From Kiritimatiellia bacterium (GTDB taxonomy: Bacteria; Verrucomicrobiota; Kiritimatiellia; RFP12; DVOR01): a stretch of 42,364 bases of DNA. Where the stretch lies: NCBI GenBank assembly GCA_051892815.1, contig JBJFGP010000174.1, positions 1-42,364 of the forward strand. Direction: 5' to 3'. Both the position numbers and the translations under genes were made by a program. Below the pieces are notes generated by a model. The model saw only the letters and a program-made list of their open reading frames with translations, searched no databases and was not told the DNA's origin. This document shows, in pieces, positions 1,665-42,364 of this stretch. Position 1 is the stretch's first letter. The number at the start of each line of letters is the position of its first letter.

Positions 1665-1804
1665 CAGGAAGCGACATAGTCGGCTGGCGGCAAGGTGCCG
1701 AGGTCGGCGCTAGGCTCCGGCAGCTTGGTCTTGTTGGAGACGGGCGCGGCACACAGAAGGGTTCCGGTCAGCACGAAGGCTGCACAAGTCACTGTTCTTT
1801 TCAT
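1550..1804 (-). CDS. signal-peptide ORF, probably the displaced 5' end of the 1..1664 gene (frameshift)
   Basis: ATG at 1804 gives MKRTVTCAAFVLTGTLLCAAPVSNKTK..., a typical signal or lipoprotein leader. After about 45 aa the translation turns low-complexity while the adjacent frame becomes protein-like. Confidence 0.35.
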   Translation of the reverse strand: MKRTVTCAAFVLTGTLLCAAPVSNKTKLPEPSADLGTLPPADYVASWWAPRPIGSPSSPLSNTPYRRASPIGLGSRTTTPTPLP

Positions 1805-1824
1805 CTGTCGTATTCTTTCCCTGG

Positions 1825-1864
1825 ATTCTCCCTGCGGCATACAATACACCACCGCAGGGAGAAT
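1825..1864 (-). terminator. 13-bp perfect stem-loop (ATTCTCCCTGCGG / CCGCAGGGAGAAT, 14-nt loop) between two co-directional genes
   Basis: Inverted repeat read directly. It lies 32 nt downstream of the 1896 stop and 21 nt upstream of the 1804 ATG. No U-tract follows on the minus strand, so its role as a terminator is uncertain. Confidence 0.25.
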
Positions 1865-1895
1865 TGCAATAATAAAACGTTTTTTCTGGGTTCCC

Positions 1896-3461
1896 CTACC
1901 GAATCAGAATCAGCGTACCGGCGGCGAGCGGCTCGCTCAACTGAAGGGAAAGGTTATTGAGGAAGGTAGCGGCGCCGGTCTCTCCCAAGGTTGTGCCGGC
2001 CATCAACTTGAGGGTGTGGAACCCGGCCTTGAGGCCTTTCAAGGTGACGGTCTCTTCGGTGAAGGTGGTGTTCAACTCCCTTTCGACCACCACTGCTTCT
2101 TTGCCATCGAGGTAGATGGGGATACGCTGTCCGCTCGTATAATTGGCATAGTTCAGCGAGCGCATATTTATCGTCAGCGTGTAGTGTCCGTCGACAGGCG
2201 CACAGAAGGTCTGCTCAAGACCATTGCCGACCTCTGCGCCCACCGGGGCAAGCAAGCAAAGTTCCCAGGAGTTATCACTTGTAGAGCCGCCAACCGGAGT
2301 TCCACCAAGAAGCGCCCAACACACGCCGCCATAACCGTTTCCGGGACCGGTGGCTGACCAGTCCGCAAAGGCTGCATAGGGATAGGTCGCGTTGTAGAAG
2401 TCCCTGACGCGGTTCAGCCAGACGTTCCCTTCCAGACCGCCATGGACCAGTTCGAAGTCGGCATTGGCGAGCAGGTTGGCGTCTGAAGCGATGACCTTTG
2501 CGCTCAGGCGGATGTCGCCGTCACCCTCGGGAACGGTAATCGTCAAGGGGTTGGCAAGGCGGTTTTCTTCGGTGATGCCGTCGCCCACCCAGCCTACGAA
2601 GTAGTATCCGTCGTCGGGGCGGACGGAGAGGGTGTGGGTCTCTCCTGTGGTAATGGCGATTGGCTCGCCGTAGCCTTGAACGGTGCCGTTGGCGACCTCG
2701 ACTTCGATCTGGCGCTCAAAAAGGCCGAACTGCATGTCGTCTATCGTATCGACGGCGGTTGCGCTGCTCTGACAGGGTTCGGCCTGTTCGGTGTAGATGT
2801 CAAGGTCGTAGTCGCCCGCCTCCAACTGGAAGGGCTCGCTCCAGACCCTCTTCCAGTCATCACGGGTAGAGTCCGACCGTACGATATGCTGGAACGTGCG
2901 GCTGAAGACGGCTTGGCCGCCAACTTCGATGGTCATTTTGCTATCGGCCCAGTTGCTGCCGCGTGTGCCGCCGGGACCATGCCAAAAGGAAATCTGATAG
3001 GTTCCCGCCTGAGGCACCGTCACCTTTTGGCGCAGGCGTTTGGGGACATAAACGACGTTCGCCGCACCCGCGGGCGCCTTGGCATGGAATGCAATGCGTT
3101 GATTCTTGCTCTCGCGCGAAGAGGACGAGACCTTACTCACATTGGAATTGGGCGGGGTGTAGTAGATGGTGTTCGGGTAGGTCGTGAGCGTCGTACCGTC
3201 TTCCAACTCGGTATCCTCCTGCACCACGAGCTCCCAGTACGTCAGCGGCTGAATCACAACCCCGCCCGGACTCGTTTGGCCCACGAGTTCCAAATTGCCG
3301 TAGCCGTTGCCCTGGTTCATATTGAGCCGGTCGGGATTTTCGATAGGATCGTCGAACCCCGGATCGTTCAGCAGGTTGTCGCCGACGATGCCAGCACGAG
3401 CCACGTTCACGGAGCAGCAAACCGTTGCCGCCGCAATATAATATGGAATAGACAGACGCAT
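1896..3461 (-). CDS. secreted protein with two CBM/DUF642-like modules flanking an InlB-B-repeat-like module
   Basis: ORF 1896..3623, with the start trimmed to ATG 3461 (MRLSIPYYIAAATVCCSVNVARA signal peptide, AAGG Shine-Dalgarno). Modules start NLLNDPGFDDP and NLLANADFELV. The middle reads GTVQGYGEPIAITTGETHTLSVRPDDGYYFVGWVGDG. The protein ends ...AAGTLILIR. Confidence 0.85.
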   Translation of the reverse strand: MRLSIPYYIAAATVCCSVNVARAGIVGDNLLNDPGFDDPIENPDRLNMNQGNGYGNLELVGQTSPGGVVIQPLTYWELVVQEDTELEDGTTLTTYPNTIYYTPPNSNVSKVSSSSRESKNQRIAFHAKAPAGAANVVYVPKRLRQKVTVPQAGTYQISFWHGPGGTRGSNWADSKMTIEVGGQAVFSRTFQHIVRSDSTRDDWKRVWSEPFQLEAGDYDLDIYTEQAEPCQSSATAVDTIDDMQFGLFERQIEVEVANGTVQGYGEPIAITTGETHTLSVRPDDGYYFVGWVGDGITEENRLANPLTITVPEGDGDIRLSAKVIASDANLLANADFELVHGGLEGNVWLNRVRDFYNATYPYAAFADWSATGPGNGYGGVCWALLGGTPVGGSTSDNSWELCLLAPVGAEVGNGLEQTFCAPVDGHYTLTINMRSLNYANYTSGQRIPIYLDGKEAVVVERELNTTFTEETVTLKGLKAGFHTLKLMAGTTLGETGAATFLNNLSLQLSEPLAAGTLILIR

Positions 3462-3507
3462 AGCGAACCTTTTTGACAAATGATTCTGACAAGACTTTGC
3501 GCCTGTC

Positions 3508-3545
3508 ATTTTAGCCCCCCCCCCCCCCCCCCCCCCTGATGTCAA
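3508..3545 (-). promoter_or_regulatory. sigma70-like promoter: TTGACA (3545..3540), 26-nt spacer containing G22, TAAAAT (3513..3508)
   Basis: The minus strand reads TTTTGCTTGACATCA-G22-CTAAAATGACAGG. It lies about 47 nt upstream of ATG 3461. Confidence 0.5.
3515..3536. repeat. homopolymer C22 (G22 on the coding strand of the downstream gene)
   Basis: Counted directly in the sequence. Confidence 0.95.
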
Positions 3546-3596
3546 GCAAAAAGTGCGTCTCGCGCCAAGAAATTTTTCGGGTTCAATCGGCCCCCA

Positions 3597-3712
3597 CTCC
3601 CCGAAGATGCCAACCTGCCACACCCCAAGGTAGCAATGTCCGCCCCCGAAAGGTACCCGAGATCGGGTGCGGAAGGTGCCTACCCGCCGCCCCGAAAGGT
3701 ACCAACGAAACG
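3597..3712. repeat. tandem array, 5 units, exact 23-bp period (C-rich orientation on plus strand)
   Basis: AAGGT/AAGAT anchors at 3604, 3627, 3650, 3673 and 3696. An example unit is CCCCGAAAGGTACCAAC. Confidence 0.85.
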
Positions 3713-3715
3713 CCC

Positions 3716-4768
3716 CTAGTGCTCCGCCTCGCCCTCGTGGAACGAACCGTCCGCGTGAAAGTGTCCCGAGGCCCCCTTCTCCCCCGCATCAAGCTGCGAA
3801 ACCAGCGCGTAGGCCCCCTCCACCACCACCTCGTCCGACGCCCCGATTCCCTCGACCGCCGCACGACCCTCGCGCTCCGCCAACACACGAACCGGACGCG
3901 CCTCAAAGTGGTCAGACTCCCCCTTCTCCCGCACCAACACCACCAGTTCAAGCCCACGCCGCACCACCGCGCGAGCCGGAACCGTCAGCCGCTCCGCCCC
4001 CCCCTTCGGAGCCAGCCACACCTCCGCCCGCTCCCCAGCCAACGCACCCACCCCCTCCGGCTCCGACAACCTCAGCCGCACCATCCCCTCCGCGCCCGAC
4101 GGCAAAACCGCGTACCTCGCCGGCTGTCCCCCGACCGACACCGATGCTCCATCCTTCAGCCCGCGCCACACCCCCGAAGGCACCTCCAGCGTCAGCGCCA
4201 ACGCCCCCTTCCGCACCAGCCGCACCAGCGAAGCCCCCCCCTCCACCTGCGCCAAATTGCCCGCGTCAAACCCCGACACCACCCCCTCGCACGGCGCCAA
4301 AAGCCGCCACACCCCGCCCGACACCACAACCCCGGAAAGCCCATAGCCCGACATCTCAGACACTACCCTCCCCAACGCCGACTCAAGTTCCGCATGACCC
4401 GTCCCCAACCGCTCATAATGCCCCAGGCGCGCCCTCAACCGAGCCCCCTCCGCCTCAAGCTCCCGCAGCCGAGGTGCCTCCACCTCAGCCAGCGCCTCGC
4501 CCGCCTTCACCCCCGAACCAATCCGAGAAACCAGCCGAACCCGACCCGCCAACGGCGTCCCCAGAACCAAACGATCCTCCTCCGCCACAGCCCAGAAACC
4601 AACCCCGCGCCAGCCCTCCTCCAACACCATCCGCCGCGGACGCTCCACCCTCAAACCAAGCGCCTCCCGAGCCCACTTCCCGACCGTCACAGCCTCCTCG
4701 TGGTGCCCTTCAGCCAACACCGCCAAAGGCAACCAGACCAACAGACAGATACCAACCTTTCCCATCAT
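3716..4768 (-). CDS. efflux RND periplasmic adaptor (membrane fusion protein, CzcB/CusB-like) with His-rich C-terminal tail
   Basis: 350 aa with an N-terminal signal/anchor (MMGKVGICLLVWLPLAVLA), a coiled-coil segment (APRLRELEAEGARLRARL) and a beta-barrel-like C-terminal half. The tail reads GHFHADGSFHEGEAEH. Its ATG overlaps the upstream stop (ATGA). Confidence 0.85.
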   Translation of the reverse strand: MMGKVGICLLVWLPLAVLAEGHHEEAVTVGKWAREALGLRVERPRRMVLEEGWRGVGFWAVAEEDRLVLGTPLAGRVRLVSRIGSGVKAGEALAEVEAPRLRELEAEGARLRARLGHYERLGTGHAELESALGRVVSEMSGYGLSGVVVSGGVWRLLAPCEGVVSGFDAGNLAQVEGGASLVRLVRKGALALTLEVPSGVWRGLKDGASVSVGGQPARYAVLPSGAEGMVRLRLSEPEGVGALAGERAEVWLAPKGGAERLTVPARAVVRRGLELVVLVREKGESDHFEARPVRVLAEREGRAAVEGIGASDEVVVEGAYALVSQLDAGEKGASGHFHADGSFHEGEAEH

Positions 4769-7700
4769 CTCTCAACCTCCTCCAGCCAGCACGCATACCC
4801 CAATTCCGCCGCCGCATCCAGCAACGAATCCGACCACGACAACTCCGACAACGCCCCCTCAAGACGCTCCTCCATCAACTCAAAACACCCCACTGCATCC
4901 ACCTCCCCCGAACGATACAACCCCCACGGATCCAACACCCCCGCCGCCGGCCGGTGTGCCAACAGACGCGACACCTTCCCGGCAACCTCCGCCGCCGCAG
5001 ATACCCTCCTCTTCCAGCACATCGCAACCTCCTCCAGCGACACCTCCCGCCTACCCGTCGCCTCCGCGATTGCCAACCGGTTGCGGTTCCAGATAGGCAG
5101 ACTCACCCCCACGCCGAACCCGAGACGGTCGCTCCCGTCTTCCCGTTCGTAGAGCGGCGAGAGCGACACCTCCGGGTACTGCCGGCGCACTTCAAGCCGC
5201 AACTCCGCTTCGCTTGCCCCGAGCCGCCCCATTGCCGCCAAAACCTCCGGATGGCGCACAAGATCGAGTGCCGCAGGAAGTTTCAGCGGCCCCCTCGGAA
5301 GCGCAGGAATCCCCTCGTCCAAAGCAATCTCCGAGCCCGGATGGAGCCCGAGCAGCCGCTTCAGATCTGCCTCCGCCTCGGCCTCTTTCTCGCGCAACTC
5401 CTGGGCCAGATGCTGCCTTTCGTGGTGGCGGCGGCGTACCGACGAGGCGGTCCCTTTGGAGAGTTCCCCCGCCTGCGACAGGTGGTCGACCGCCGAGAGC
5501 AGAGATGCCAACCTGTCGGACCCCAAGTAGTCAACCACCGTCTCACGGCGGCGGCGTATCCCCTTGAGGCGGAGCCAGGCACGAACGGCGGCGTTGGAGG
5601 TCGAGAGTTCGGCCGATTGGAGGGCAAGTCTCTCGGCTTGGGTGTACATCTCCCGGGCGCGGCGCTGGAGCGAAGGGGTTCCGGAGATGGGCAGGACGAG
5701 GCCGATTCCTGCGCCGAAGAGGAAGGGGTGGTCGGACGGCTGTGCGATGCGCAGGAGGTCGAAGGAGAGGTCGGGATCTGCCCAGTAACCGGAGGCTTGG
5801 GCGGCTTTCCGGGTGTGGGCGAGTTTGGTTCGGGCGAGGCTGAGTTCGGGGTTGCCGATGAGGGCGGTCCTGGCTGCGTCGGCGGGGGTTTGGAGGGTAA
5901 TGCGGGCGGGGCGCCATTGGTCGGATCGGGTCTGGAGGTCGAGTTGGGCGGGGTGGTAGGCGATGCAGCCGGCGAGGAGGATGGGTAGGCAGGCGAGGAG
6001 GGCGGTGGTTGGCACCTTTGGGGTGCGTTCGGTGAGGATGACGAGTGCGGGGAGTACGAGTTGGTTGAGGAGGAGGGCGCCCAGGATGCCGCCGAACTGG
6101 ACGGTTGCGAGGGGGGCGAGGAGTTCGCCTCCGGGGGTGTCGGCGCTGAGCATCAGGGGGATGAGTCCGAGGAGGGTGGTGAGGGTGGTCATTATGATGG
6201 GGGCGAGGCGTTCGCGGGCGCCTTCGCGCAGGGCTCTCGGGAGGGGCTGGCCTTGGTCGAGGCGCTGGAGGAGGGCGTTGAGCAGGAGCAGTCCGTTGCG
6301 CAGGGCAAAGCCTGTGACGGTGACGAAGCCGACTAGGGCGCTGACGCTGAGGCTGGTGTGGGCGAGGCGGGCGGCCAGGATGCCGCCGATGAGGGCGAGG
6401 GGCAGGTTGACGAGGGCCAGGAGGGCGTGGCGGAGGCGTCCGAGGCTCAGGGTGAGGAGGGCGAGGATGAGGGCGAGGAGGGCGGCGGAGGCGAGCAGGA
6501 GGGTGCGGGTGGCGCTTTGGCGGGCTTCGTGGCTGCCGGTGAGGGTGAGGTCGCAGCCTAGGTTTTGGGCGGCGGGTTGGAGGCGTTGGAGGAGGGTTTG
6601 GACGACTTGTCCGCTGCTGGCTTTGCCGTCGAGGTTGCAGGAGATGAGGGCTTTGCGGCGGCCGTTTTCGCGCAGGAGCATCAGGGGGGCTTCTTCGGCG
6701 CGGAGGGTGGCGACGGATGCGAAGGGAACGGGCTGTCCGCGGCCACCGACGAAGGTGAATCGGCGCAGGTCGCGTTCGGTCTGGCTGGAATCGTCGGCGA
6801 GGCGGATAGCAACCTCCCGGCGCGATTGGTTGGCAAGAATGGTTCCCACAGGTAGGCTCCTGTAGGCGGCGGAGATTTGTATCCCCGCATCCCTAAGGTT
6901 CATACCTTCCGCGGCGAGGGCTGCGGGGTCGTAGTCGATGCGCAAGGTACGGCCCGTGGCCTCGCGGTTGGCGCGAATGTCGGCGATGCCGGGCACCGAC
7001 GCGATGAGGGGTTTCAAGGTTTGGACCGCCGCGCGCAAACGATTCGGATCTTCGCAATAGAGGTTCACGGCCAGTTCCGCCTCGGTCCCGGAGAGGATGG
7101 CGCTGATGCGGTGCTCGATGGGATAGCCGACCATCACGCTGGCGCCGGGTATCGATCCGAGCCGTTCGCGGATGGCTTGGCGCACCGCAGAGGCGTCCCC
7201 GTCGAGGTGGACGATGAACTCGGTACTGGAGACAGGTTCGGCGTGCTGATCGCGCTCCGCACGCCCCGTCCGCCGCACGACCTTCCCGACGCCCGGGATG
7301 GAGGAGAGCACCCGACCGGCGTGCCGAGCCGTACGCTCCGCCTCCGGCAGCGACGCCGAAGGACTCAGCGACAAGAGCACATTCAGGGTCGGCTCGTGCA
7401 GCGGCGGCAGGAAACTCGTGCCCAGCCTCGTCGCCAAAGATGCCGACCAGACCGCCAACAGCAAGACGGGAATCAGCGTCAGAATCGGGTGCCGAATCGA
7501 GCACTCCAAACACGGCGCGTAGAGCCGATCCAAAAGCCTCATCAGAGGCGCCCGCCCCTTCGAAACGCCCCCGCCCGAACCACCCTCAAGCAACAGAGAA
7601 AGGCACGGCACCACCACCACCGCAACCGCGAACGACGCCCCCAGAAGCGCCAGATACGCCTTCCCCAAAGGCTTGAAAAATCGCCCCTCCAACCCGGGAA

Positions 7701-9054
7701 GCAGAAACAGCGGAACAAACGCCAGCACGATAATCGCTACCGAACAAAGCACACTCGGAAACACTTCTGCCACCGCATTCGCAACCACCTCCCGCCGCGA
7801 CAGATACCCCCCTTCGTCAAGCCTTCTGCGTATCGCCTCGGCAAAGACAATGCCCGAGTCGACAATGTCTCCAGCCGCAACAGCCACCCCACCCAATGTC
7901 ATCACATCCACCCCAATCCCAAGCACCGGAAAGAGCGAAACACCCGCCAGAACCGTCAGAAAAAGCGACGCCAAAACCACCAGAATCGAACGCCATTTCA
8001 GGAGCGTCAGAGCCAATACCACCAGCACGATCCAAAGCGTGTCCCGGAGGATTCCGCGCACACCCCGGAGCGACGTTTCTATGAAGTCCGCCTGGCGGTA
8101 GGCGGCAGGTTCGACAGTCAGTCGTGCGCCATTCCGGGCGGCGAAGGAAGCCAGCACCGAGTCGATTTTCCGCGTTAGTTCGAGGGTGTTTCCACCGGGC
8201 GTTTTCTGCACGGAGAGGAGTACCGCTTCAGCGGAATCGAGGCTAGCAGAACCCCTTCTGGGTGCGCCCGAAAGGGTGACATCAGCGGCTTGTCGGAGTC
8301 GGAGAGAAGGGCTCAAAGGGAGGTCGCGGAGGGCTTCGAGCGTCTCTACCCGGGCGGTTTGTTCGAGGGGGATTTCTTCAGACCTGTCGTCCGGAAGGTA
8401 GCCTGCGACGGGGCGCGAGAGGGCGGCACGAAGGGTATCGGCGAGTTGGTCTGGGCGGATGCCGAGGGAAGCCAGGCGGATGGGGGTGGTGTTGATTCGA
8501 TATTCGGGAAGGGCACCGCCCATGACGGCGACTTCGCCGACACCTGGGATGGCGAGGAGTTGGGGCCTGAGGTCGTATTCGGCTCGTTCGCGCAGGTCGA
8601 GGAGGTTGGCATCTTTTGTTGGAATCAGTGCGATGAGTTGGATCTCGCCGGTGACTGCCAATGGGGGTGCGATCTCGGGTTTGGCCTCTGGGGGGAGGTC
8701 GGTTTGGAGGCGTGCGAGGCGTTCGTAGAGGCGGGTTCGGGCGCGGTCCAGGTTTTCGCGCCAGTCGAGGTCGATGGTGATGATGGAGAGTCCGATGGTG
8801 GAGGAGCTGCGGATGGTGCGGACTTGGCCGATTCCGTAGGCGGCGGTCTCGAGGATTCGTGTGACGCGCTGTTCGGTTTCGGCGGCGGTGAGTCCGGGGG
8901 CTTCGGTCTGGAGAACGAGTCGCGGGGGTTGGATGTCGGGGAAGATGTCGACGGGCAGCCCGCGCAGTCCCAGGAGGCCGGCGAGGGCTACGGCGGCTAG
9001 GGCTGCGAGGGTGGTCTTGGGGTGGTCGAGGAGGGGTGCAAGGAGGGGGCGCAT
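4765..9054 (-). CDS. RND efflux permease (heavy-metal CzcA/CusA-like, aa 1 to ~1010) fused in frame to an outer-membrane factor (TolC/CzcC-like lipoprotein, aa ~1015-1429)
   Basis: 1429-aa uninterrupted ORF. The N-terminus reads ...LPVDIFPDIQPPRLVLQTEAPGLTAAETEQRVT, and 12-TM RND topology is apparent. An internal lipobox ALLACLPILLAGC has its Cys codon at 5965..5967. It is followed by about 399 aa of OMF-like sequence. Confidence 0.85.
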   Translation of the reverse strand: MRPLLAPLLDHPKTTLAALAAVALAGLLGLRGLPVDIFPDIQPPRLVLQTEAPGLTAAETEQRVTRILETAAYGIGQVRTIRSSSTIGLSIITIDLDWRENLDRARTRLYERLARLQTDLPPEAKPEIAPPLAVTGEIQLIALIPTKDANLLDLRERAEYDLRPQLLAIPGVGEVAVMGGALPEYRINTTPIRLASLGIRPDQLADTLRAALSRPVAGYLPDDRSEEIPLEQTARVETLEALRDLPLSPSLRLRQAADVTLSGAPRRGSASLDSAEAVLLSVQKTPGGNTLELTRKIDSVLASFAARNGARLTVEPAAYRQADFIETSLRGVRGILRDTLWIVLVVLALTLLKWRSILVVLASLFLTVLAGVSLFPVLGIGVDVMTLGGVAVAAGDIVDSGIVFAEAIRRRLDEGGYLSRREVVANAVAEVFPSVLCSVAIIVLAFVPLFLLPGLEGRFFKPLGKAYLALLGASFAVAVVVVPCLSLLLEGGSGGGVSKGRAPLMRLLDRLYAPCLECSIRHPILTLIPVLLLAVWSASLATRLGTSFLPPLHEPTLNVLLSLSPSASLPEAERTARHAGRVLSSIPGVGKVVRRTGRAERDQHAEPVSSTEFIVHLDGDASAVRQAIRERLGSIPGASVMVGYPIEHRISAILSGTEAELAVNLYCEDPNRLRAAVQTLKPLIASVPGIADIRANREATGRTLRIDYDPAALAAEGMNLRDAGIQISAAYRSLPVGTILANQSRREVAIRLADDSSQTERDLRRFTFVGGRGQPVPFASVATLRAEEAPLMLLRENGRRKALISCNLDGKASSGQVVQTLLQRLQPAAQNLGCDLTLTGSHEARQSATRTLLLASAALLALILALLTLSLGRLRHALLALVNLPLALIGGILAARLAHTSLSVSALVGFVTVTGFALRNGLLLLNALLQRLDQGQPLPRALREGARERLAPIIMTTLTTLLGLIPLMLSADTPGGELLAPLATVQFGGILGALLLNQLVLPALVILTERTPKVPTTALLACLPILLAGCIAYHPAQLDLQTRSDQWRPARITLQTPADAARTALIGNPELSLARTKLAHTRKAAQASGYWADPDLSFDLLRIAQPSDHPFLFGAGIGLVLPISGTPSLQRRAREMYTQAERLALQSAELSTSNAAVRAWLRLKGIRRRRETVVDYLGSDRLASLLSAVDHLSQAGELSKGTASSVRRRHHERQHLAQELREKEAEAEADLKRLLGLHPGSEIALDEGIPALPRGPLKLPAALDLVRHPEVLAAMGRLGASEAELRLEVRRQYPEVSLSPLYEREDGSDRLGFGVGVSLPIWNRNRLAIAEATGRREVSLEEVAMCWKRRVSAAAEVAGKVSRLLAHRPAAGVLDPWGLYRSGEVDAVGCFELMEERLEGALSELSWSDSLLDAAAELGYACWLEEVER

Positions 9055-9254
9055 CAGTCGCGTTCTCTGGTGTTTTTGCGGGTGCGGAGATGGCGATGGC
9101 GGCGGCAGAGGGTATGGGTCTTGGGGGGCGTGTCGCGGGCATCGGCGGGTCGGATTTCGACCTTTGCGGCGGGGGCGTTGGTGGTTGGGTTCTCGGCCTT
9201 TGCGGTGCAGGTGGCGAGGGTGAGGAGGAGTAGGGTAAGGGCAATGGGTTTCAT
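9054..9254 (-). CDS. small putative lipoprotein (66 aa)
   Basis: MKPIALTLLLLTLATC carries a lipobox. Third positions are GC-rich, and the stop overlaps the RND start as TGATG (translational coupling). The basic C-terminus includes CRRHRH. Confidence 0.5.
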   Translation of the reverse strand: MKPIALTLLLLTLATCTAKAENPTTNAPAAKVEIRPADARDTPPKTHTLCRRHRHLRTRKNTRERD

Positions 9255-9324
9255 ATCCGTTCTGCTTTGGGGTGTGGAGGGTTGGCTCCTGCCGGTTGGC
9301 GGGAGGCGGTTGCAGAACGGGGTG

Positions 9325-9720
9325 TCAGGCGAGCGGGCAGAGTCTCGTGGCGTAGGTGCGGTAGTGGTCGCCGGGGGGGGCGGCGGGCTGGTGGGCGCGG
9401 GGGATTGGGGCGGGCTCGCGGGGGGTGGCGATGAGGCAGGCGATTGGGGGATGGGAGGGCGCGGGCAGGCCGAGGTGGTGCTGCTCGACGGGGTGGGTCG
9501 GCTGGCTGTGGAGGATGAGGTGGGTGCAGGGGTCGCCGGCCTGGAGGGTGGTGTGCGCGGGGGCGGTTTCGCCGCCGCAGTCGTGGCATTCTCTGCCGCA
9601 TCCGTCGGGGTCCGGGTTGCAGAGGCAGAGGGCGCGCGCGGTCAACGGCGCGGCGAGGAGGGTCGCCGCGGCGAGGAGCGTGGCCAAGGCCTTTTTCAAC
9701 CAGTTCCCTTTGGATTCCAT
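9325..9720 (-). CDS. secreted Cys/His-rich small protein, putative periplasmic metal-binding accessory
   Basis: Signal peptide KKALATLLAAATLLAAPLTARA, then LCLCNPDPDGCGRECHDCGG and several His residues. Third positions are GC-rich. A canonical promoter lies directly upstream. Confidence 0.55.
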   Translation of the reverse strand: MESKGNWLKKALATLLAAATLLAAPLTARALCLCNPDPDGCGRECHDCGGETAPAHTTLQAGDPCTHLILHSQPTHPVEQHHLGLPAPSHPPIACLIATPREPAPIPRAHQPAAPPGDHYRTYATRLCPLA

Positions 9721-9726
9721 ACCTTC

Positions 9727-9755
9727 ACTCTAGCATTTCCGGCGGGGGATGTCAA
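9727..9755 (-). promoter_or_regulatory. sigma70-like promoter TTGACA (9755..9750) - 17 nt - TAGAGT (9732..9727)
   Basis: The -10 hexamer ends 6 nt before the A of ATG 9720. The transcript would therefore be leaderless or nearly so. Confidence 0.5.
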
Positions 9756-9797
9756 GCCTGCACCGGCGGGGGCCGGGCGGGCGGAGGCGGGGGCAGT

Positions 9798-9886
9798 GGG
9801 TAGGCACCTTTGGGGTCGACGGGTTGCAACCTTTCGGGGGCTGAGGTGGGCACCTTCGGGGGCGGGAGGTATCAACCTTTCAGATC
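9798..9886. repeat. tandem array, 4 units, exact 23-bp period (G-rich orientation on plus strand)
   Basis: ACCTT anchors at 9806, 9829, 9852 and 9875. Unit cores are GGTAGGCACC, GGTTGCAACC, GGTGGGCACC and GGTATCAACC. Confidence 0.9.
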
Positions 9887-10453
9887 GAGAGATTGGTAGG
9901 CGGCGATGGTCCGCTCGAACAGTTCGTCGAGCGTCCAGCCCAAGAGATTGGCGCCGCGGGCGATAACCTCCCGGGAGCATCCGGCGGCGAACTTGCGGTC
10001 TTTGAACTTCTTGCGGACGCTCTTGAGGTTGAGGTCCGCCGCGCACTTCGAGGGGTACATCAGCACGATGGCCCCGAGCAGCCCCGTCAGCTCGTCCACC
10101 GCGTAGAGCACCCGCTCCATCGGATGCTCCGGGGCGATGTCGTTGACGATGGCATAGCCGTGCGACGCCACCGCGCGGGCGACCGACTCCTCAACTCCCG
10201 CCTCCTTCAGAAGCGCCAGTGAGCGGGCACAGTGCTCCTGCGGCCAGAGCTCGAAGTCGATATCGTGCAGCAGCCCCACAATCCCCCAATACTCCTCCTC
10301 CGCGCCAAACCCGAGCGCCCGCGCAAACCAACGCATCGTCCCCTCCACCGTCCGCGCATGGAGCAGATGGAACGGCTCCTTGTTGTAGCGCAGAAACAGT
10401 TCCCACGCCGCCGCGCGCGACAGCCGAGTCGATCGGATCATCGATTCATTCAT
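9872..10453 (-). CDS. HD-domain metal-dependent phosphohydrolase
   Basis: 193 aa with GLLHDIDFE (HD motif) and downstream His/Asp residues. ATGA overlap with the upstream gene. Confidence 0.8.
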   Translation of the reverse strand: MNESMIRSTRLSRAAAWELFLRYNKEPFHLLHARTVEGTMRWFARALGFGAEEEYWGIVGLLHDIDFELWPQEHCARSLALLKEAGVEESVARAVASHGYAIVNDIAPEHPMERVLYAVDELTGLLGAIVLMYPSKCAADLNLKSVRKKFKDRKFAAGCSREVIARGANLLGWTLDELFERTIAAYQSLDLKG

Positions 10454-11649
10454 CCTCCAAACTCCCGTTCCAGAAACGCCCCCGTCCGCGCAAGCGCTTC
10501 CTCAAGCCGCGCCCGCGGGCAAGCCAGATTCACCCGCAAATACGCCGTCCCCGGAGGCTCGCCAAAGATGGCCCCGGGCGAAAACTTCACCCCCGACTCC
10601 TGCTCCAACCGGCGCGCCAGTTCCGTCGACGAAACCCCAAGGCTCGAACACTCCACCCACCCCAGATAAGTCGACTCCATCCGCCCCACCGCAAGCCCCA
10701 GCCCGACCCCGTGGCAAAACCCCTCCAGCACCCCCCAATTCCCGCCAATGTAGGCGCAAAGTTCGTCCAGCCACCCCCCGCAGAAACGCCACGCCGCCTC
10801 CGAAGCAACCAGACCGAACAGGTTCGGCTCGACCGCGCGATTCAGCCGCAGGACCCTGCCAATCCGCTCCCTTGCCGCCTCATCCGGACACACCACCGCG
10901 GCCGCCTGAAGCCCCGCCAGATTGAACGCCTTCGAGGCCGAATGAAAACTCGCCCCCACCCGCCCGATACCATCCCCAAGCGACAGAAAAGGCACATGCG
11001 CCGACCCCGCCATCTGCAAATCCCCGTGGATCTCGTCGCTCGCCACAAACACCCCATGCCGCCTGCACAACTCCCCCACCCGCGCCAACTCCGCCAAGCG
11101 CCACGAACGCCCCGCCGGATTGTGCGGATTCGAAAGAATCAACAGCTTCGTACGCCCATCCGCCAGCTTCCGCTCCAAATCCCCGAAGTCCATCCGATAG
11201 GTGAAATCACCCTCCTTCCCGCCCGGGAGCGGCACCCGCCGAAGCCGATTTTCCTCCACATAGCAACCCTGCTCGCGGATCACATCGTAGAAACAATTGT
11301 AGACCGGAGGTTGGATTACCACGCTGTCGCCGGGATTGCAGAAAGCCCTCACCGTAGCCGCGAGAGCCGGCACCACGCCCGAGCACGCAATGACCGACTC
11401 CGTGCCCACCCGCAGCCCGTGGCGGTGCCAAAGCCACTGGACCAGCGCTTCCTTCCACCGGGGCGGGACGAGCGTATATCCGAAGAGGCCCGATTCCAAT
11501 CTCCGCCTCAAAGCCTCGACTATCTCCGGGGCCGCGCGGAAGTCCATGTCGGCGACCCAAAGCGGCAAGACATCTGCCCGTTCGGGTGCGTCCCATTTGA
11601 GGCTGTCGGTGCCGCGCCGCGGGAGTAGTTCGTTGAAGTCAAAGGCCAT
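10450..11649 (-). CDS. patB: PLP-dependent C-S lyase (MalY/PatB-type cystathionine beta-lyase)
   Basis: MAFDFNELLPRRGTDSLKWD..., NPHNPAGR, and SASKAFNLAGL (PLP lysine). Start set at ATG 11649. Confidence 0.85.
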   Translation of the reverse strand: MAFDFNELLPRRGTDSLKWDAPERADVLPLWVADMDFRAAPEIVEALRRRLESGLFGYTLVPPRWKEALVQWLWHRHGLRVGTESVIACSGVVPALAATVRAFCNPGDSVVIQPPVYNCFYDVIREQGCYVEENRLRRVPLPGGKEGDFTYRMDFGDLERKLADGRTKLLILSNPHNPAGRSWRLAELARVGELCRRHGVFVASDEIHGDLQMAGSAHVPFLSLGDGIGRVGASFHSASKAFNLAGLQAAAVVCPDEAARERIGRVLRLNRAVEPNLFGLVASEAAWRFCGGWLDELCAYIGGNWGVLEGFCHGVGLGLAVGRMESTYLGWVECSSLGVSSTELARRLEQESGVKFSPGAIFGEPPGTAYLRVNLACPRARLEEALARTGAFLEREFGG

Positions 11650-37375: not shown

Positions 37376-38392
37376 TCAAACCAAGGTTTCGCAGATGGAG
37401 ATGGATATGGTGTTGTAAATATCCTCTGCGCTGCAGCCTCTGGAGAGGTCGTTGATGGGCTTGGCGACGCCTTGCACGACGGGCCCGACTGCTTCGGCTC
37501 CGGCGAGGCGCTGGACTAGTTTGTAGGCGATGTTTCCTGCCTGGAGATCGGGGAAGATGAGTACATTGGCGTTGCCCTGGACCTTGCCGTCTTTGTTCTT
37601 GGCGGCGGCCACGGAGGGGACGAGTGCGGCGTCAGCCTGCATCTCGCCGTCTACGATGGCGTCGAGACCGTTCTGGGCAAACTTTTGTTCGGCGAGTTCG
37701 CGCGCCTGGCGGACTTTGTCTACCAGCTCGTGCTTGGCGCTGCCCTTGGTGGAGAAGCTGAGGAAGGCCACTTTCGGCTGTTTGCCGACCAAGGCTTTGT
37801 AGGAGAGTGCTGTGGCGTAGCCGATGTCGGCGAGTTGTTCGGCGGTGGGGTTGGGGTTGACGGCGCAGTCGCCGAAGAGCAGGACTTCATCGCCGGCGGG
37901 GGTGGGCTGCTTGAGTTGCATGACGAAGCAGGAGGAGGCGGTGGCGATGCCTTTGCGGGTGCCGACGCACTGGAACGCGGCGCGGAGCATATCGCCGGTT
38001 GAGGCGATGGAGCCGGCAACGAGGGCGTCGACCTTGCCGAGGGAGAGCATCATGGCACCGAAGTAGATGCGTTTGGCGCGCATGGTCTTGAGGGCTTCGT
38101 CGGGGGTCATGCCTTTGGCCTTGCGGCGTTCGTAGAAGGCGGCGGCGAGTTCGTCGGCAATGGGGTCGAGGGTGTAGTCGATGGTGCGGATGCCGTTCTC
38201 GGCGAGGGAGAGGCCGGCTTGCTGTTCGGCGGCGGCGATTTCGGCGGGCGTGCCGAGGACGACGACTTTGGCCAGTCCGTCCTTGGTGGCTTTGACGGCG
38301 GCGGTGATGACGCGGGGATCCTGTCCTTCGGGGAGGACGACGGTTTTGCCGGCGGCTTTGGCGCGGGCGGCGAGCTGTTCAAGCAGATTCAC
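37376..38392 (-). CDS. pta: phosphate acetyltransferase (short form)
   Basis: 338 aa: KTVVLPEGQDPRVI, ALVAGSIASTGDMLRAA, FGDCAVNPNPTAEQLADI and NVLIFPDLQAGNIAYKL. Confidence 0.9.
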   Translation of the reverse strand: MNLLEQLAARAKAAGKTVVLPEGQDPRVITAAVKATKDGLAKVVVLGTPAEIAAAEQQAGLSLAENGIRTIDYTLDPIADELAAAFYERRKAKGMTPDEALKTMRAKRIYFGAMMLSLGKVDALVAGSIASTGDMLRAAFQCVGTRKGIATASSCFVMQLKQPTPAGDEVLLFGDCAVNPNPTAEQLADIGYATALSYKALVGKQPKVAFLSFSTKGSAKHELVDKVRQARELAEQKFAQNGLDAIVDGEMQADAALVPSVAAAKNKDGKVQGNANVLIFPDLQAGNIAYKLVQRLAGAEAVGPVVQGVAKPINDLSRGCSAEDIYNTISISICETLV

Positions 38393-38428
38393 TTGGGCGA
38401 TTCCTTTGCAATGGGTTCGTGGTTAAAT

Positions 38429-38457
38429 AGGATAACATTTTCCCCAAAAGGAATCAA
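38429..38457 (-). promoter_or_regulatory. pta promoter TTGATT (38457..38452) - 17 nt - TATCCT (38434..38429)
   Basis: Read directly on the minus strand. An AAGGAA Shine-Dalgarno precedes GTG 38392. Confidence 0.4.
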
Positions 38458-38472
38458 CCAAAATGGCCGATT

Positions 38473-38580
38473 GGTTGGCACCTTGAGGGGCGGGAGGTGG
38501 CTACCTTTCGGGGGCGGTGGTTGGTACCTTGGGGGCTAAAAGGTAGCAACCCTTCGCCGTCGGAGGTTGGTCCGGCGGGA
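38473..38580. repeat. tandem array, 5 units, 23-bp period
   Basis: ACCTT anchors at 38480, 38503 and 38526, then 38550 (24 nt), then a degenerate fifth unit. Cores are GGTTGGCACC, GGTGGCTACC, GGTTGGTACC and GGTAGCAACC. Confidence 0.85.
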
Positions 38581-38625
38581 AGGGTTGCGTGTGGAGAATG
38601 GAGACGGCTCCTCGGGCGCGGGGCG

Positions 38626-40299
38626 CTAGCGCAGGAAGATGAGGGTGGGGTTGGCGCTGCGCTTGCGATAGAGGACGACATGCTGGACGCCGTCGACGGT
38701 CTCAATACGCACGGCGGGCGAGTAGATGCCGTCGGGATCGGTGCCGTCGTCGGTATCGAAGAAACAGTTGGATACGTCAAAATCGGCGGCGGTAAGGGTA
38801 CGCACGGAGGTCGGTACCTTCATTAGCGTCCACCCTTTGGCCGAGAGCGGATTCGCCAAGGGAATGGCCACCGTGGCGGCGATCTTGACGGTTCCTTCGA
38901 GGGTGCAGGATTCGTCCAGCACGAAGCAATCGCTGACGCAGACCTCGTCCTTGATGTCGATTTCGCACTTGACGCCGCCGCCAACGAAGTGGGCGTTCTT
39001 GAGCGCAACCTCCTCCGTCCCGACCGCACTCGAAGAGGCCACCGGTCTAGGATGGACATAGTGGCCAATACCCGCTTGTGAATGGGCAATCGCCGTCGCA
39101 TTGCTGGAGACCCCCGGGTGTAGGTAGGCGCACAATTCAGGGTTGGCAGCGCAGGAGTGGGCGCCAGCGTAATACGAGTAGCAACCGGCATGGATCCAAC
39201 CGCCCTCCAGCTTCAGTTGGTGGGTGGGAATACGGGCGGCATCCAAGGCAATCGTGCCATTCTCCTCCGCCCGCAGAAGCGTACCTTCCGGAATCGCATA
39301 GGCATTCTCAATCTGCAGCAAGGTATTCGTTGAAGCCGTCAGACGGGGCGTACCCTCCGAGCACGAAAGCGCCCCAGAAACCAACACAAAGCCGTGTTCC
39401 AGCGGGCATGAATCCGTCTTATTCACAAAGACCACCTCGCCCTTGCTCTCCAGGTACCAGTTCTGCATCCGCTCGGGCTTGTGCGTACCATAAGAGCTGT
39501 TGCGATTCTCGAACCACATGCCCGCCTCGTCGACCACCCAGCCGTTCTTGGCGCAGTCGAGAACGATATGCCCGCCCGAGAGGGTGAACATGTAGAAGAA
39601 ACCAGCACCACCACACACCTCAATCGCATCTGCCCGAAGTCCGCTACGGCTCGAACCGAACGACGGGAAACCACTGGACAACACCCCGTCCGAGCCATCA
39701 TAGATGACCTTTCCCAGGTAGTTTCCGCCCGTAATGGTAATCGGGTTCCAGGTAGTTGAGCCCGTTTCACGGAGCACCTTGACTGCGCTGCTTTCCGGCC
39801 CGGACAAAGGCACCCCGACACCCCCAGTCACATTACCTGTCTTCAGCGCAACAATGCGAAAAGGGTTTGCTGCCGTGGATTCGACCAGGCCGGCATTCTG
39901 CAAAGCCGTGTTACATTCCACTAGCAATTCGCCGGAGTGGAGCACGAGTTCCGGGATGACTATTTTACCGTTCCATTTGCCGGACATTCGTAGCGCGCCT
40001 TCGGTCTCGTCGGTGCCGATGGTCAGCCGCTGGCCTGCGAAGGTTTGGGTTCCACGGTCGATACCCATAATCCAGAGGGCATTCTCGGACCCCGGGCCCA
40101 AGGCGACCAGGTAGTGGTTGGTGACGGCGGCACCCTCTTCGGGTGCGGACGGGGCTTCGCCATTGCTCCAGCTGCCCGCCGCCACGAAGGAGGAGTTGGC
40201 GTACGAGCCGTCGCCCTGCGTCAAGGTGACGGTATTGATCTCGGCCAACACCGAGAGGCTGCCCAGCAAAGCGACCGCGACAATAAAAATAAAACTCAT
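38626..40299 (-). CDS. secreted protein of unknown family (557 aa)
   Basis: Signal peptide MSFIFIVAVALLGSLSVLAEI. Beta-rich and Cys-containing. Ends ...ANPTLIFLR. AAGGGA Shine-Dalgarno. Confidence 0.8.
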   Translation of the reverse strand: MSFIFIVAVALLGSLSVLAEINTVTLTQGDGSYANSSFVAAGSWSNGEAPSAPEEGAAVTNHYLVALGPGSENALWIMGIDRGTQTFAGQRLTIGTDETEGALRMSGKWNGKIVIPELVLHSGELLVECNTALQNAGLVESTAANPFRIVALKTGNVTGGVGVPLSGPESSAVKVLRETGSTTWNPITITGGNYLGKVIYDGSDGVLSSGFPSFGSSRSGLRADAIEVCGGAGFFYMFTLSGGHIVLDCAKNGWVVDEAGMWFENRNSSYGTHKPERMQNWYLESKGEVVFVNKTDSCPLEHGFVLVSGALSCSEGTPRLTASTNTLLQIENAYAIPEGTLLRAEENGTIALDAARIPTHQLKLEGGWIHAGCYSYYAGAHSCAANPELCAYLHPGVSSNATAIAHSQAGIGHYVHPRPVASSSAVGTEEVALKNAHFVGGGVKCEIDIKDEVCVSDCFVLDESCTLEGTVKIAATVAIPLANPLSAKGWTLMKVPTSVRTLTAADFDVSNCFFDTDDGTDPDGIYSPAVRIETVDGVQHVVLYRKRSANPTLIFLR

Positions 40300-40330
40300 T
40301 CTGACATCCCTTATTGGTTTCGGATGGCTC

Positions 40331-40358
40331 TAGAATAACTGCCCCCCCCCCCTGTCAA
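40331..40358 (-). promoter_or_regulatory. promoter-like TTGACA (40358..40353) followed directly by G11 (40352..40342), then CAGTTATTCTAGAGC
   Basis: It shares the TTTTGCTTGACA-polyG architecture seen at 3508..3545. Candidate -10 hexamers are TATTCT (15-nt spacer) and TAGAGC (20-nt spacer). Confidence 0.45.
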
Positions 40359-40417
40359 GCAAAATCGTCATTTCTCGTCAATTATTTTTCTCGGCTGGTA
40401 GACAGGAATTGGTCGCA

Positions 40418-40488
40418 GGGGTATCAACCTTTCGGGGGCGAAGGTCGTTATCAATGGGTGTGGGAGGTAGGAACCTTTTTTGCGGCGC
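40418..40488. repeat. array of the 23-bp family, 3 units (middle one degenerate)
   Basis: ACCTT anchors at 40427 and 40473 (46 = 2 x 23). Cores are GGTATCAACC and GGTAGGAACC. Confidence 0.7.
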
Positions 40489-40498
40489 AGACGCAGGC

Positions 40499-40527
40499 TT
40501 GCCACAAGGCGGGATTCTTGGTATACT
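40499..40527 (+). promoter_or_regulatory. promoter TTGCCA (40499..40504) - 17 nt - TATACT (40522..40527) with TG extension
   Basis: Read directly, 13 nt upstream of ATG 40541, so the leader would be very short. Confidence 0.5.
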
Positions 40528-40540
40528 CCCCAGCGTCGAG

Positions 40541-41413
40541 ATGAATGGATTGAAAGCGAAACTGAAGGCGTGGGCGCAGTTGCTGCGCGTGGCGAATCTG
40601 CTGACGGTGCCGGGCGATGCGATTGCGGGCTTTTGGCTGACGGCCGGCGCGGGTGCGCCCGGACGCGCCTTGGCGGCGAGCATCGCGGTCGGGGTTTTGC
40701 TCTATGCCGCAGGGCTCGCGCTCAACGACTTTTGCGACCGGAAAGTCGACGCCGAAGAGCGGCCCGCCCGCCCGATTCCCTCAGGGCGCATTGGTCCGAA
40801 GGCCGCGCTCGCCGCCGCCGGAGCCTTGGGCGCGGTAGCCTGGCTGGTCGCGGGAAGCCTCCTGCCGTGGCGTGGGTTGGTGGTGACCGCCGGGCTGAGC
40901 GGCTTGATTGTCTTATATAATGTATACGCCAAACGCCACGCCTGGTTCGGCATCCCTGTGATGGCCCTTTGCCGGGGGGGCAGTTTCCTGCTGGGCTGGA
41001 GCGCCGCCGCTTCCGGCGCGCCCCACTGGGGCGCCAGCGCCCTGCTGATGCTCTACATCGCCCTCGTCTCCATCGTCGCCGCCCGCGAAGCCAACCCCGG
41101 CAAACTCTTCCCCCTGCCCTACCTGCCAGGGCTAGGACTTGGCATCGCGGCGGCCTACTGGCGGCAGGTGCCCTGGTTCAACCTGCTCGCCCTCGTATTG
41201 GCCCTGCGCACCCTCCTGCTGGGCGCCGCACTCGGTCAATGGCCCAAACCCGAGGCCGTCCAGAAAACCATTGGCCAATGGCTCGTCGCGCTCCCCTTTC
41301 TCCAAGGTTCCCTCCTGCTGCTCGCCCCCCATGCACCACCCGTCTGGATCGCCTGCGTAATGGCCCTCGCCATCCCCGCACGCCTGCTCGGAAAGGTCTG
41401 CCATGTCTCCTGA
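40541..41413 (+). CDS. UbiA-family prenyltransferase (integral membrane)
   Basis: Start at ATG 40541 (MNGLKAKLKAWAQLLRVANL). LNDFCDRKVDAEERPARPIPSGRI carries the NDxxDxxxD motif. Multiple TM helices. Confidence 0.8.
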   Translation: MNGLKAKLKAWAQLLRVANLLTVPGDAIAGFWLTAGAGAPGRALAASIAVGVLLYAAGLALNDFCDRKVDAEERPARPIPSGRIGPKAALAAAGALGAVAWLVAGSLLPWRGLVVTAGLSGLIVLYNVYAKRHAWFGIPVMALCRGGSFLLGWSAAASGAPHWGASALLMLYIALVSIVAAREANPGKLFPLPYLPGLGLGIAAAYWRQVPWFNLLALVLALRTLLLGAALGQWPKPEAVQKTIGQWLVALPFLQGSLLLLAPHAPPVWIACVMALAIPARLLGKVCHVS

Positions 41414-42364
41414 AGCCACCCGTTCGGAGCAAGGAAAGGGACTCCTCGTCGTCCAAGTCGCCGCCCTCGGGTACGAACTCGCCCGCCACATTCCCGGCTG
41501 GGACTTTCGCCCCCTGCAAACCATCTTCCCCGCCCTCACCTGCCCCGTGCAGGCCACCTTCCGAACCGCCCTCGAACCCCGCGAGCACGGTATGGAGGCC
41601 AACGGCGTCTACCAGCCCGACCTGCGCAGACCTTTCTTCTGGGAACAGTCCTCCGCGCTCGTCAAAGGTCGCCGTATCTGGGACGCCTTCAGGGCCGAAG
41701 GCGGTACCGTCGCGATGATTTGCTGGCAACAGAGCCTCGGGGAAGCTGCCGACTACATCATCAGCCCCGCGCCCATCCACAAGCACGGCGGAGGCATGAT
41801 TCTCGAGTGCGCCCTCAAGCCCCAAGGCCTCGTCAAGCCTGGCTTCCCCCTCCATCGCTACTGGGGACCGCTCGCCGACGACCGTTCCACCCAATGGATC
41901 GTCGAGGCTACCCTCCAAGTCATCCGCGAACGCCAGCCAGGCCTCGTCCTGACCTACCTCCCGACCCTCGACTACCAACTCCAGCGCAAAGGCCGCGACC
42001 CCAAAGGAATCCGCCAGATTGCCGCCCACCTCGACCGCCTCCGCAAGGAATCCGGCTACCGCCTCGTCGTCTTCGGCGACTACGCCATCACGCCAGCCCG
42101 CCGCCCCATTTACATCAACCGCGTCCTGCGCCGCATGGGTCTCTTCAAGACCCGCCGGGTGCGCGGAATGCTCTACCCCGATTTCCACAACTCCCGTGCT
42201 TTCGCGCTCGTCGACCACCAGATTGCCCACATATTCGGCGAGACCGGTCTTGTCCAGAAACGCTTCCCGGAATTGGTTCGAGACCTCTCCCCGGACGGCA
42301 ACCGGTTGACCCTCCTCGCGCCCGACGGCGAGTGGTTCGCCTACCCTTGGTGGACGAGGAAGAG
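41403..42364 (+). CDS. alkaline-phosphatase-superfamily protein (nucleotide pyrophosphatase/phosphodiesterase-like), partial, continues past window end
   Basis: My own translation from ATG 41403: MSPEATRSEQGKGLLVVQVAALGYE...FPALTCPVQATFRTALEPREHGMEANG...LVLTYLPTLDYQLQRKG...VVFGDYAI. There is no stop before the window end. It overlaps the ubiA stop by 11 nt. Confidence 0.7.
   Translation, partial: MSPEATRSEQGKGLLVVQVAALGYELARHIPGWDFRPLQTIFPALTCPVQATFRTALEPREHGMEANGVYQPDLRRPFFWEQSSALVKGRRIWDAFRAEGGTVAMICWQQSLGEAADYIISPAPIHKHGGGMILECALKPQGLVKPGFPLHRYWGPLADDRSTQWIVEATLQVIRERQPGLVLTYLPTLDYQLQRKGRDPKGIRQIAAHLDRLRKESGYRLVVFGDYAITPARRPIYINRVLRRMGLFKTRRVRGMLYPDFHNSRAFALVDHQIAHIFGETGLVQKRFPELVRDLSPDGNRLTLLAPDGEWFAYPWWTRK

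Follow-up and report, generated by a model that had tools for sequence, protein, structure and literature searches.

The window, by which we mean the whole 42,364-nt stretch of Kiritimatiellia DNA that was analysed, is chromosomal, has about 63% G+C and carries the housekeeping genes pta, dapF, dnaX and mnmA together with those for a Tsp protease and an AcrB-type pump. Upstream of an ORF on the minus strand (38626..40299), whose ATG lies at 40299, the minus strand of positions 40326-40364 reads TTTTGCTTGACA-GGGGGGGGGGG-CAGT-TATTCT-AGAGC, in which the hexamers and the tract between them have the form GATTTTGCTTGACA-G11-CAGTTATTCTAGAGC. This promoter core lies 32 nt upstream of the ATG. The elements of the locus, with the -35 hexamer and the ribosome-binding site identified by reading of the sequence, are as follows.

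40380..40392, minus strand: A-rich block GAGAAAAATAATT, about 22-34 nt upstream of the -35 hexamer
40359..40364, minus strand: TTTTGC flank 5′ of the -35 hexamer, common to the G22 promoter described below and to the Kiritimatiellia MAG SUG3732 (contig L008)
40353..40358, minus strand: -35 hexamer TTGACA, a perfect sigma-70 consensus, abutting the tract
40342..40352, minus strand: poly-G tract, G11 on the gene strand (C11 on the plus strand), the bulk of the promoter spacer
40332..40337, minus strand: candidate -10 TATTCT, preferred, with a spacer of 15 nt at G11 and of 16-18 nt at G12-14
40327..40332, minus strand: alternative -10 candidate TAGAGC, with a spacer of 20 nt
40307..40312, minus strand: ribosome-binding site AAGGGA, 7 nt before the ATG
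38626..40299, minus strand: the controlled gene, for a 557-aa exported protein with signal peptide MSFIFIVAVALLGSLSVLA (cleavage before EINTV) and C-terminal tail NPTLIFLR

The hexamers and the two spacers, 15 nt to TATTCT and 20 nt to TAGAGC, had been given in a preliminary description of the locus, and on re-reading of the sequence all of them are right, including its remark that neither candidate -10 sits at 17 nt from the -35. The choice between the two can be narrowed by conservation among copies of the core. While CAGTTATTCT is kept in all three core copies, the bases that follow it differ, and TATTCT, not TAGAGC, is therefore likely to be the -10 of the G11 promoter; TAGAGC, which lacks the final T and is absent from the other copies, is disfavoured. 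At the G11 tract, whose spacer falls outside the 16-18 nt of canonical promoters, a sigma-70 consensus scan of positions 38000-42364 called none. Judged from the sequence alone, the tract lies between the -35 and the -10 and its length sets the spacer, and G11, as well as the companion G22, belongs to the slippable repeats, with about 8-9 nt or more of G/C. Blocks resembling GAGAAAAATAATT can be aligned in the G22 promoter and in the MAG contig L008; the block resembles a UP element and may act as one.

A matching arrangement of -35 and poly-G about 37 kb away, to which the preliminary description had pointed, is indeed present upstream of ORF 1896..3461 on the minus strand, and its elements are as follows.

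3508..3552, minus strand: companion promoter TTTTTGCTTGACA-TCA-G22-C-TAAAAT, spacer 26 nt as assembled
3545..3540, minus strand: companion -35
3536..3515, minus strand: companion poly-G tract (C22 at 3515-3536 on the plus strand), the arrangement spanning 3545..3515
3513..3508, minus strand: companion -10
1896..3461, minus strand: companion gene, for a 521-aa exported protein with a signal peptide, an InlB B-repeat (Flg_new_2) and the tail GTLILIR

The companion spacer amounts to n + 4 nt (TCA + n + C), and as assembled both spacers are off-optimum, at 15 nt for G11 and, by hand count, 26 nt for G22. With such a spacing the companion is predicted to be in a deep off state. Because 8-10 slips would be needed to reach a functional geometry, G22 is more in keeping with a tract that drifts or is locked off than with a rapid switch; long tracts have precedents in Bordetella bronchiseptica, in fim3 (22) and fim2 (20) (PMC1891110). 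In a relative that is syntenic with the window over about positions 1-11000 (L040, 8255-8300; NCBI MAG GCA_051884955.1), and likewise in L041 (1236-1280), the sequence of the companion promoter is TTTTTTGCTTGATATCA-G6-A-G6, fused directly to codons for ...GENLVVNAGFDDP. Here the -35 is mutated, the tract is interrupted, there is no -10, 5′UTR, start codon or signal peptide, and the gene caller began the ORF at a TTG within the promoter. The allele has the appearance of a deletion that joined the G-run of the promoter to one in the signal-peptide codons, by which the locus would have been locked off.

Apart from G11 and G22, no homopolymer in the 42,364-nt window exceeds 8 nt, and these two tracts are intergenic and stand beside GCTTGACA, of which the window holds only four sites on the two strands, half of them with a tract. 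Under a first-order composition model about 0.16 G/C runs of at least 11 nt and about 4e-7 runs of at least 22 nt are expected in the window, and by our own estimate the chance of G11 abutting one of the four GCTTGACA sites is about 1e-5. Given these low expected counts and the position of the runs beside GCTTGACA, the placement of the tracts is not due to chance. An Rfam search of the window returned one tRNA only, and a known RNA element at the tract was rejected on this ground.

The third GCTTGACA site, at 9757 on the minus strand, belongs to a tract-less TTGACA-N17-TAGAGT promoter, an example of a normal promoter of the organism. In this promoter (9716-9757, minus strand, GCTTGACA-N17-TAGAGT) the ATG of a 131-aa ORF (9325..9720) lies 6 nt past the -10, suggestive of a leaderless mRNA, and the ORF itself lies upstream of an AcrB/HlyD-type efflux operon (4765..9054 and 3716..4768). 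The window also contains a repeat of about 23 nt, GGT-N4-ACC-TT(T)CGGGGGCG-N2-4, which forms arrays at 9799-9881, 38450-38555, 40397-40479 and, in the opposite orientation, 3590-3700, with single units at 473 and 6007. At each poly-G promoter and at the 9757 promoter an array precedes the -35 by 39-45 nt, another lies between the 557-aa gene and pta, and one is kept in the syntenic MAG contig L040 (8100-8220); their orientation relative to the gene is variable. The repeats could be a REP-like element or sites for a regulator.

The G11 promoter had been described as lying upstream of a secreted protein, and the 557-aa product of ORF 38626..40299 does have a signal peptide. The cleavage context A/EINTVTLTQGDG (A/EINTV, the slash marking the cleavage) is kept throughout its family of four homologs while the signal peptides themselves differ, and on these sequence features the protein is classed as exported. 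Its relatives are few, with only three among 5.8 billion proteins, one of them labelled Kiritimatiellia bacterium, and the protein matches no Pfam or NCBIfam family. An AlphaFold model built from a 4-sequence alignment is mostly beta and poor (pLDDT 51), and a Foldseek search of the PDB with this low-confidence model gave nothing significant (best E = 0.14). The top neighbours in that search, all non-significant, are without exception right-handed beta-helix proteins, a hint from the model that the protein might be a beta-helix adhesin or lyase. In a pig-gut metatranscriptome (run X15) a 185-nt contig is about 97% identical to window positions 39985-40169, within the 557-aa gene; this contig, which may be DNA carry-over, weakly hints that a close homolog is transcribed in vivo.

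The relatives of the 521-aa companion protein include another Kiritimatiellia MAG. The 557-aa and 521-aa proteins were rejected as paralogs (BLASTP E = 0.39), and what they share is a C-terminal tail, [PG]TLI[FL][LI]R, coded at 38629-38649 and 1899-1919, respectively. Among window ORFs of at least 150 aa, a hydrophobic tail followed by arginine is found only on the two behind the poly-G promoters. The homologs have the ends NPTIIFLR, GFMVIVR (a looser fit), NPTLIFLR and GTLILIR, and the tail of the 557-aa protein is kept in two of its three homologs and is looser in the third. At this length it is too short for a transmembrane helix, and it matched neither PEP-CTERM nor any other NCBIfam sorting domain at E <= 0.1. 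From its sequence and distribution, the tail may be an undescribed C-terminal sorting signal.

As a stretch of 34-36 nt, the promoter core is found outside the window in other sequence contexts and with other tract lengths. The sequencing runs with words in common with the window come from pig-gut and faecal metagenomes; when runs were queried at the level of contigs with three stretches of the window, no near-identical run was found, the best (X1) sharing 26-37% of words, and the 91-nt promoter gave no match in four further pig-gut runs. A 747-nt contig of run X1 matches the window only over 40331-40366, with three extra C (G14), and a 257-nt contig of run X25 matches 40332-40365 with two fewer (G9), in both cases between unrelated flanks, the homopolymer lengths in such k-mer contigs being open to sequencing error. 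The upstream flank of the X25 contig is that of the Kiritimatiellia MAG SUG3732 (L008), where the tract is G17. The companion core likewise recurs between unrelated flanks, as TTGACA-TCA-G18-TAGAAT in X1 and as TTGACA-TCA-G11-TAAAAT in X28, and the depth of these contigs, 2-6 times the baseline, indicates several copies.

Homologs of both genes also keep a tract in the promoter spacer. The gene for P0003, which is 81% identical to the 557-aa protein, has ...AGCACA-G11-TAAAGTG-TATAAT upstream, with a spacer of 18 nt and otherwise different flanks. P0006, which is 62% identical to the companion protein, was found in four samples of a single study, on one contig each, with the promoter ACAGTTGACA-Gn-TAATGTTG-TAGAAT (TTGACA-Gn-N8-TAGAAT). 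All four contigs agree throughout the 1713 nt that follow the tract, and the two that extend beyond its other end also agree over 120 nt there; the sole difference between the contigs is the tract, which in the contigs as assembled is G11, G10, G10 and G11, for spacers of 19 or 18 nt. The homolog L001 (P0002) has no tract within the 50 visible upstream nucleotides and L030 has none, and the design is therefore not universal in the family. The Logan contig that carries P0003 (L039) has two tracts in its intergenic region (3589-3598 and 3858-3868), a G11 in the P0003 promoter spacer and a G10 (C10 on the complementary strand) some 12 nt upstream of TTGCAG-N17-TATAAT, a promoter that drives a divergent protein of more than 1172 aa with a signal peptide and, by eye, possibly an InlB-type repeat. 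The proposal in the preliminary description that the arrangement is a conserved design is borne out by the several copies of the core, with G9, G14, G11 and G18, by the retention of the tract in homologs of both genes and by the G10/G11 difference between the P0006 contigs.

A genome-wide search of the kind that the preliminary description had proposed was run for TTTTGCTTGACA-N0-3 followed by at least eight G in 185,579 species genomes, and gave 22 loci, against about 4 by uniform chance (our own estimate). These span many phyla, with four in one gut MAG and others in several Clostridia MAGs, Helicobacter cynogastricus, Moraxella and the Kiritimatiellia MAG SUG3732. Nearly all have a -10-like box next, and where the downstream gene can be read, most lie upstream of genes for signal-peptide, lipoprotein or pilin-like products. 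In metagenome contigs, TTTTGCTTGACA-N0-3-G9+ was found at 8 loci, with a Kiritimatiellia origin established for none, and GCTTGACA-G9+-N0-15-CAGTTATT gave 0 matches. One low-GC gut MAG labelled Alphaproteobacteria (BRZ_AF__bin11) has at least four promoters of the form TTTTGCTTGACA-GT-G12-13-TAGTG-TATRCT (L003, L006, L010 and L019), three of them upstream of genes with similar N-termini (MSVFGSIFG..., MFKLKSLFGK... and MMKFSSIFGKK...). Between assemblies the tract lengths of promoters of this type, L007 and L034 included, are 11-13, and by their sequence they look like an independent poly-G promoter family.

We propose, as the probable reading, that the locus upstream of the 557-aa gene is a sigma-70-type promoter whose spacer consists nearly entirely of the hypermutable G11 and that it acts as a simple-sequence contingency switch. 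The homopolymer would gain or lose G through slipped-strand mispairing at replication, and each slip would shift both the distance and the rotational phasing between TTGACA and TATTCT. With TATTCT as the -10, the spacer would be n + 4 nt, so that G11 (15 nt) is predicted to give a weak or off promoter and G12-14 (16-18 nt) the on state, with the optimum at G13; the assembled allele would thus need one slip for weak activity and two for the optimum. Transcription would start about 7 nt past TATTCT, near 40325. Because slipping would alter promoter strength, a clonal population would always mix cells with differing amounts of the 557-aa protein; at a distance of 37 kb, the G22 promoter would act likewise on a second, unrelated exported protein. 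We infer that expression depends on tract length and that the change is reversible, as we do any selective benefit. The signal-peptide cargo supports this proposal by analogy, such proteins being the usual cargo of contingency loci. Of the preliminary interpretation, that gain or loss of a few G would tune the promoter, the design and the variability are supported, and the function would follow as described; to this extent the interpretation is upheld in part.

Besides the geometry, well-studied analogues point to length-dependent tuning of the promoter. In the porA promoter of Neisseria meningitidis, expression is graded in the order 11G > 10G > 9G (PMC3639595); porA (van der Ende 1995) and opc (Sarkari 1994) are both as cited in PMC5084427. 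In these promoters, slips of one base make expression graded or on-off. As in porA (poly-G) and opc (poly-C), the -35 of a sigma-70 promoter is separated from its -10 by a G/C run, here ahead of a gene for an exported protein and there ahead of one for an outer-surface protein, and G11 is the tract length of high-expressing porA. The present case differs from both in that the organism is a Kiritimatiellota gut commensal, the cargo is unrelated, a perfect TTGACA abuts the tract, the promoter core is reused at several loci, and the device is known from its sequence only. In the C-stretch promoters of Bordetella fim2, fim3, fimX and fimN, tract lengths range from 7 to 22 across genomes and strains and affect transcription (PMC1891110). 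There, too, several genes have one long C/G-run promoter design, and G11 and G22 fall within the 7-22 range; however, the Bordetella promoters are BvgA-activated and serve paralogous fimbrial subunits, whereas here a consensus -35 is combined with two non-homologous cargo proteins. A perfect TTGACA stands where a promoter of the Bordetella type would have a BvgA site instead of a -35 consensus, and we know of no BvgA-type site in this phylum. Repeats in the promoter spacer are also found in Haemophilus influenzae hif (TA) and Mycoplasma hyorhinis vlp (poly-A). In these systems a change of repeat number between -35 and -10 switches surface-protein genes, which is the likeness to the present locus, although the repeat units (dinucleotide TA, poly-A) and the organisms differ; for hif, van Ham 1993 appears in the reference list of PMC5084427.

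It is unlikely, in our judgement, that the tract is instead a hypermutable passenger that varies by neutral drift while expression is set by other means. The lengths of the copies do scatter widely (9, 11, 14, 17, 18 and 22), many of them far from a 17-nt spacer, and the tract is absent from some homologs, all of which speaks for this reading. Yet unselected homopolymers of 11-22 nt decay fast, and here the tract is kept in homolog spacers whose flanks have diverged; moreover, the tracts are found only beside the -35 boxes of exported-protein genes, and a change in the sigma-70 spacer is established to alter promoter strength, as in porA.

Nor do we give much credence to a switch that depends on tract length by a route other than hexamer spacing, be it the distance to an upstream activator (as in Bordetella fim), the structure of the DNA (as a rigid G·C run or a G-quadruplex) or a protein that binds poly-G/C. 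A perfect TTGACA adjoins the tract in every copy, which an activator-only model does not need, G9-11 cannot make a canonical three-tetrad quadruplex, and tract lengths are not conserved. Such a switch could make use of the A-rich and other upstream sequence common to three Kiritimatiellia promoters, or of the arrays of 23-nt repeats that precede the -35 by 39-45 nt at each poly-G promoter and at 9757, but these repeats also occur beside tract-less promoters and in either orientation. That G17-22 is too long for sigma-70 to bridge also speaks for a route of this kind.

Although poly-G artefacts are common in Illumina two-colour data and contigs often end at the tracts (L025, which starts at C-TAAAAT, L028, L029, L008, L011, L020, L021 and those of runs X1 and X28), an origin of the run in sequencing or assembly, as two-colour-chemistry poly-G or a chimeric join, is effectively refuted, since the tract falls inside a 42-kb contig, occupies the space between the -35 and the -10 of a promoter, and appears with identical flanks and other lengths in independent runs and MAGs, so that the preliminary description was correct in holding that it is not a sequencing accident.

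Returning to the contingency switch, a broader version of it is conceivable, albeit doubtful, in which a cassette of A-rich block, TTTTGCTTGACA, poly-G and TAnnnT stands before many non-homologous exported proteins with the hitherto undescribed 7-residue [PG]TLI[FL][LI]R tail and forms a dispersed contingency regulon. If this were true, stochastic poly-G switching would diversify one tail-sorted surface proteome of an uncultured gut commensal.

Promoters with a homopolymer in the spacer belong to the textbook repertoire of mucosal pathogens, Neisseria, Bordetella and Haemophilus among them. A full-text literature search found no paper linking Kiritimatiellia with phase variation, and the mechanism proposed here is not new in itself; it is a known trick in a new bacterial group. 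What goes beyond the textbook is that one promoter core stands before non-homologous genes and that both of these genes share the [PG]TLI[FL][LI]R tail. Poly-G tracts break short-read assemblies, and assembled lengths are not to be trusted. The presence of this device in an uncultured Kiritimatiellia bacterium of the pig gut suggests that slipped-strand variation of the cell surface also occurs in little-known commensal phyla, and the two tailed proteins are good candidates for surface factors that face the host, phages or glycans.
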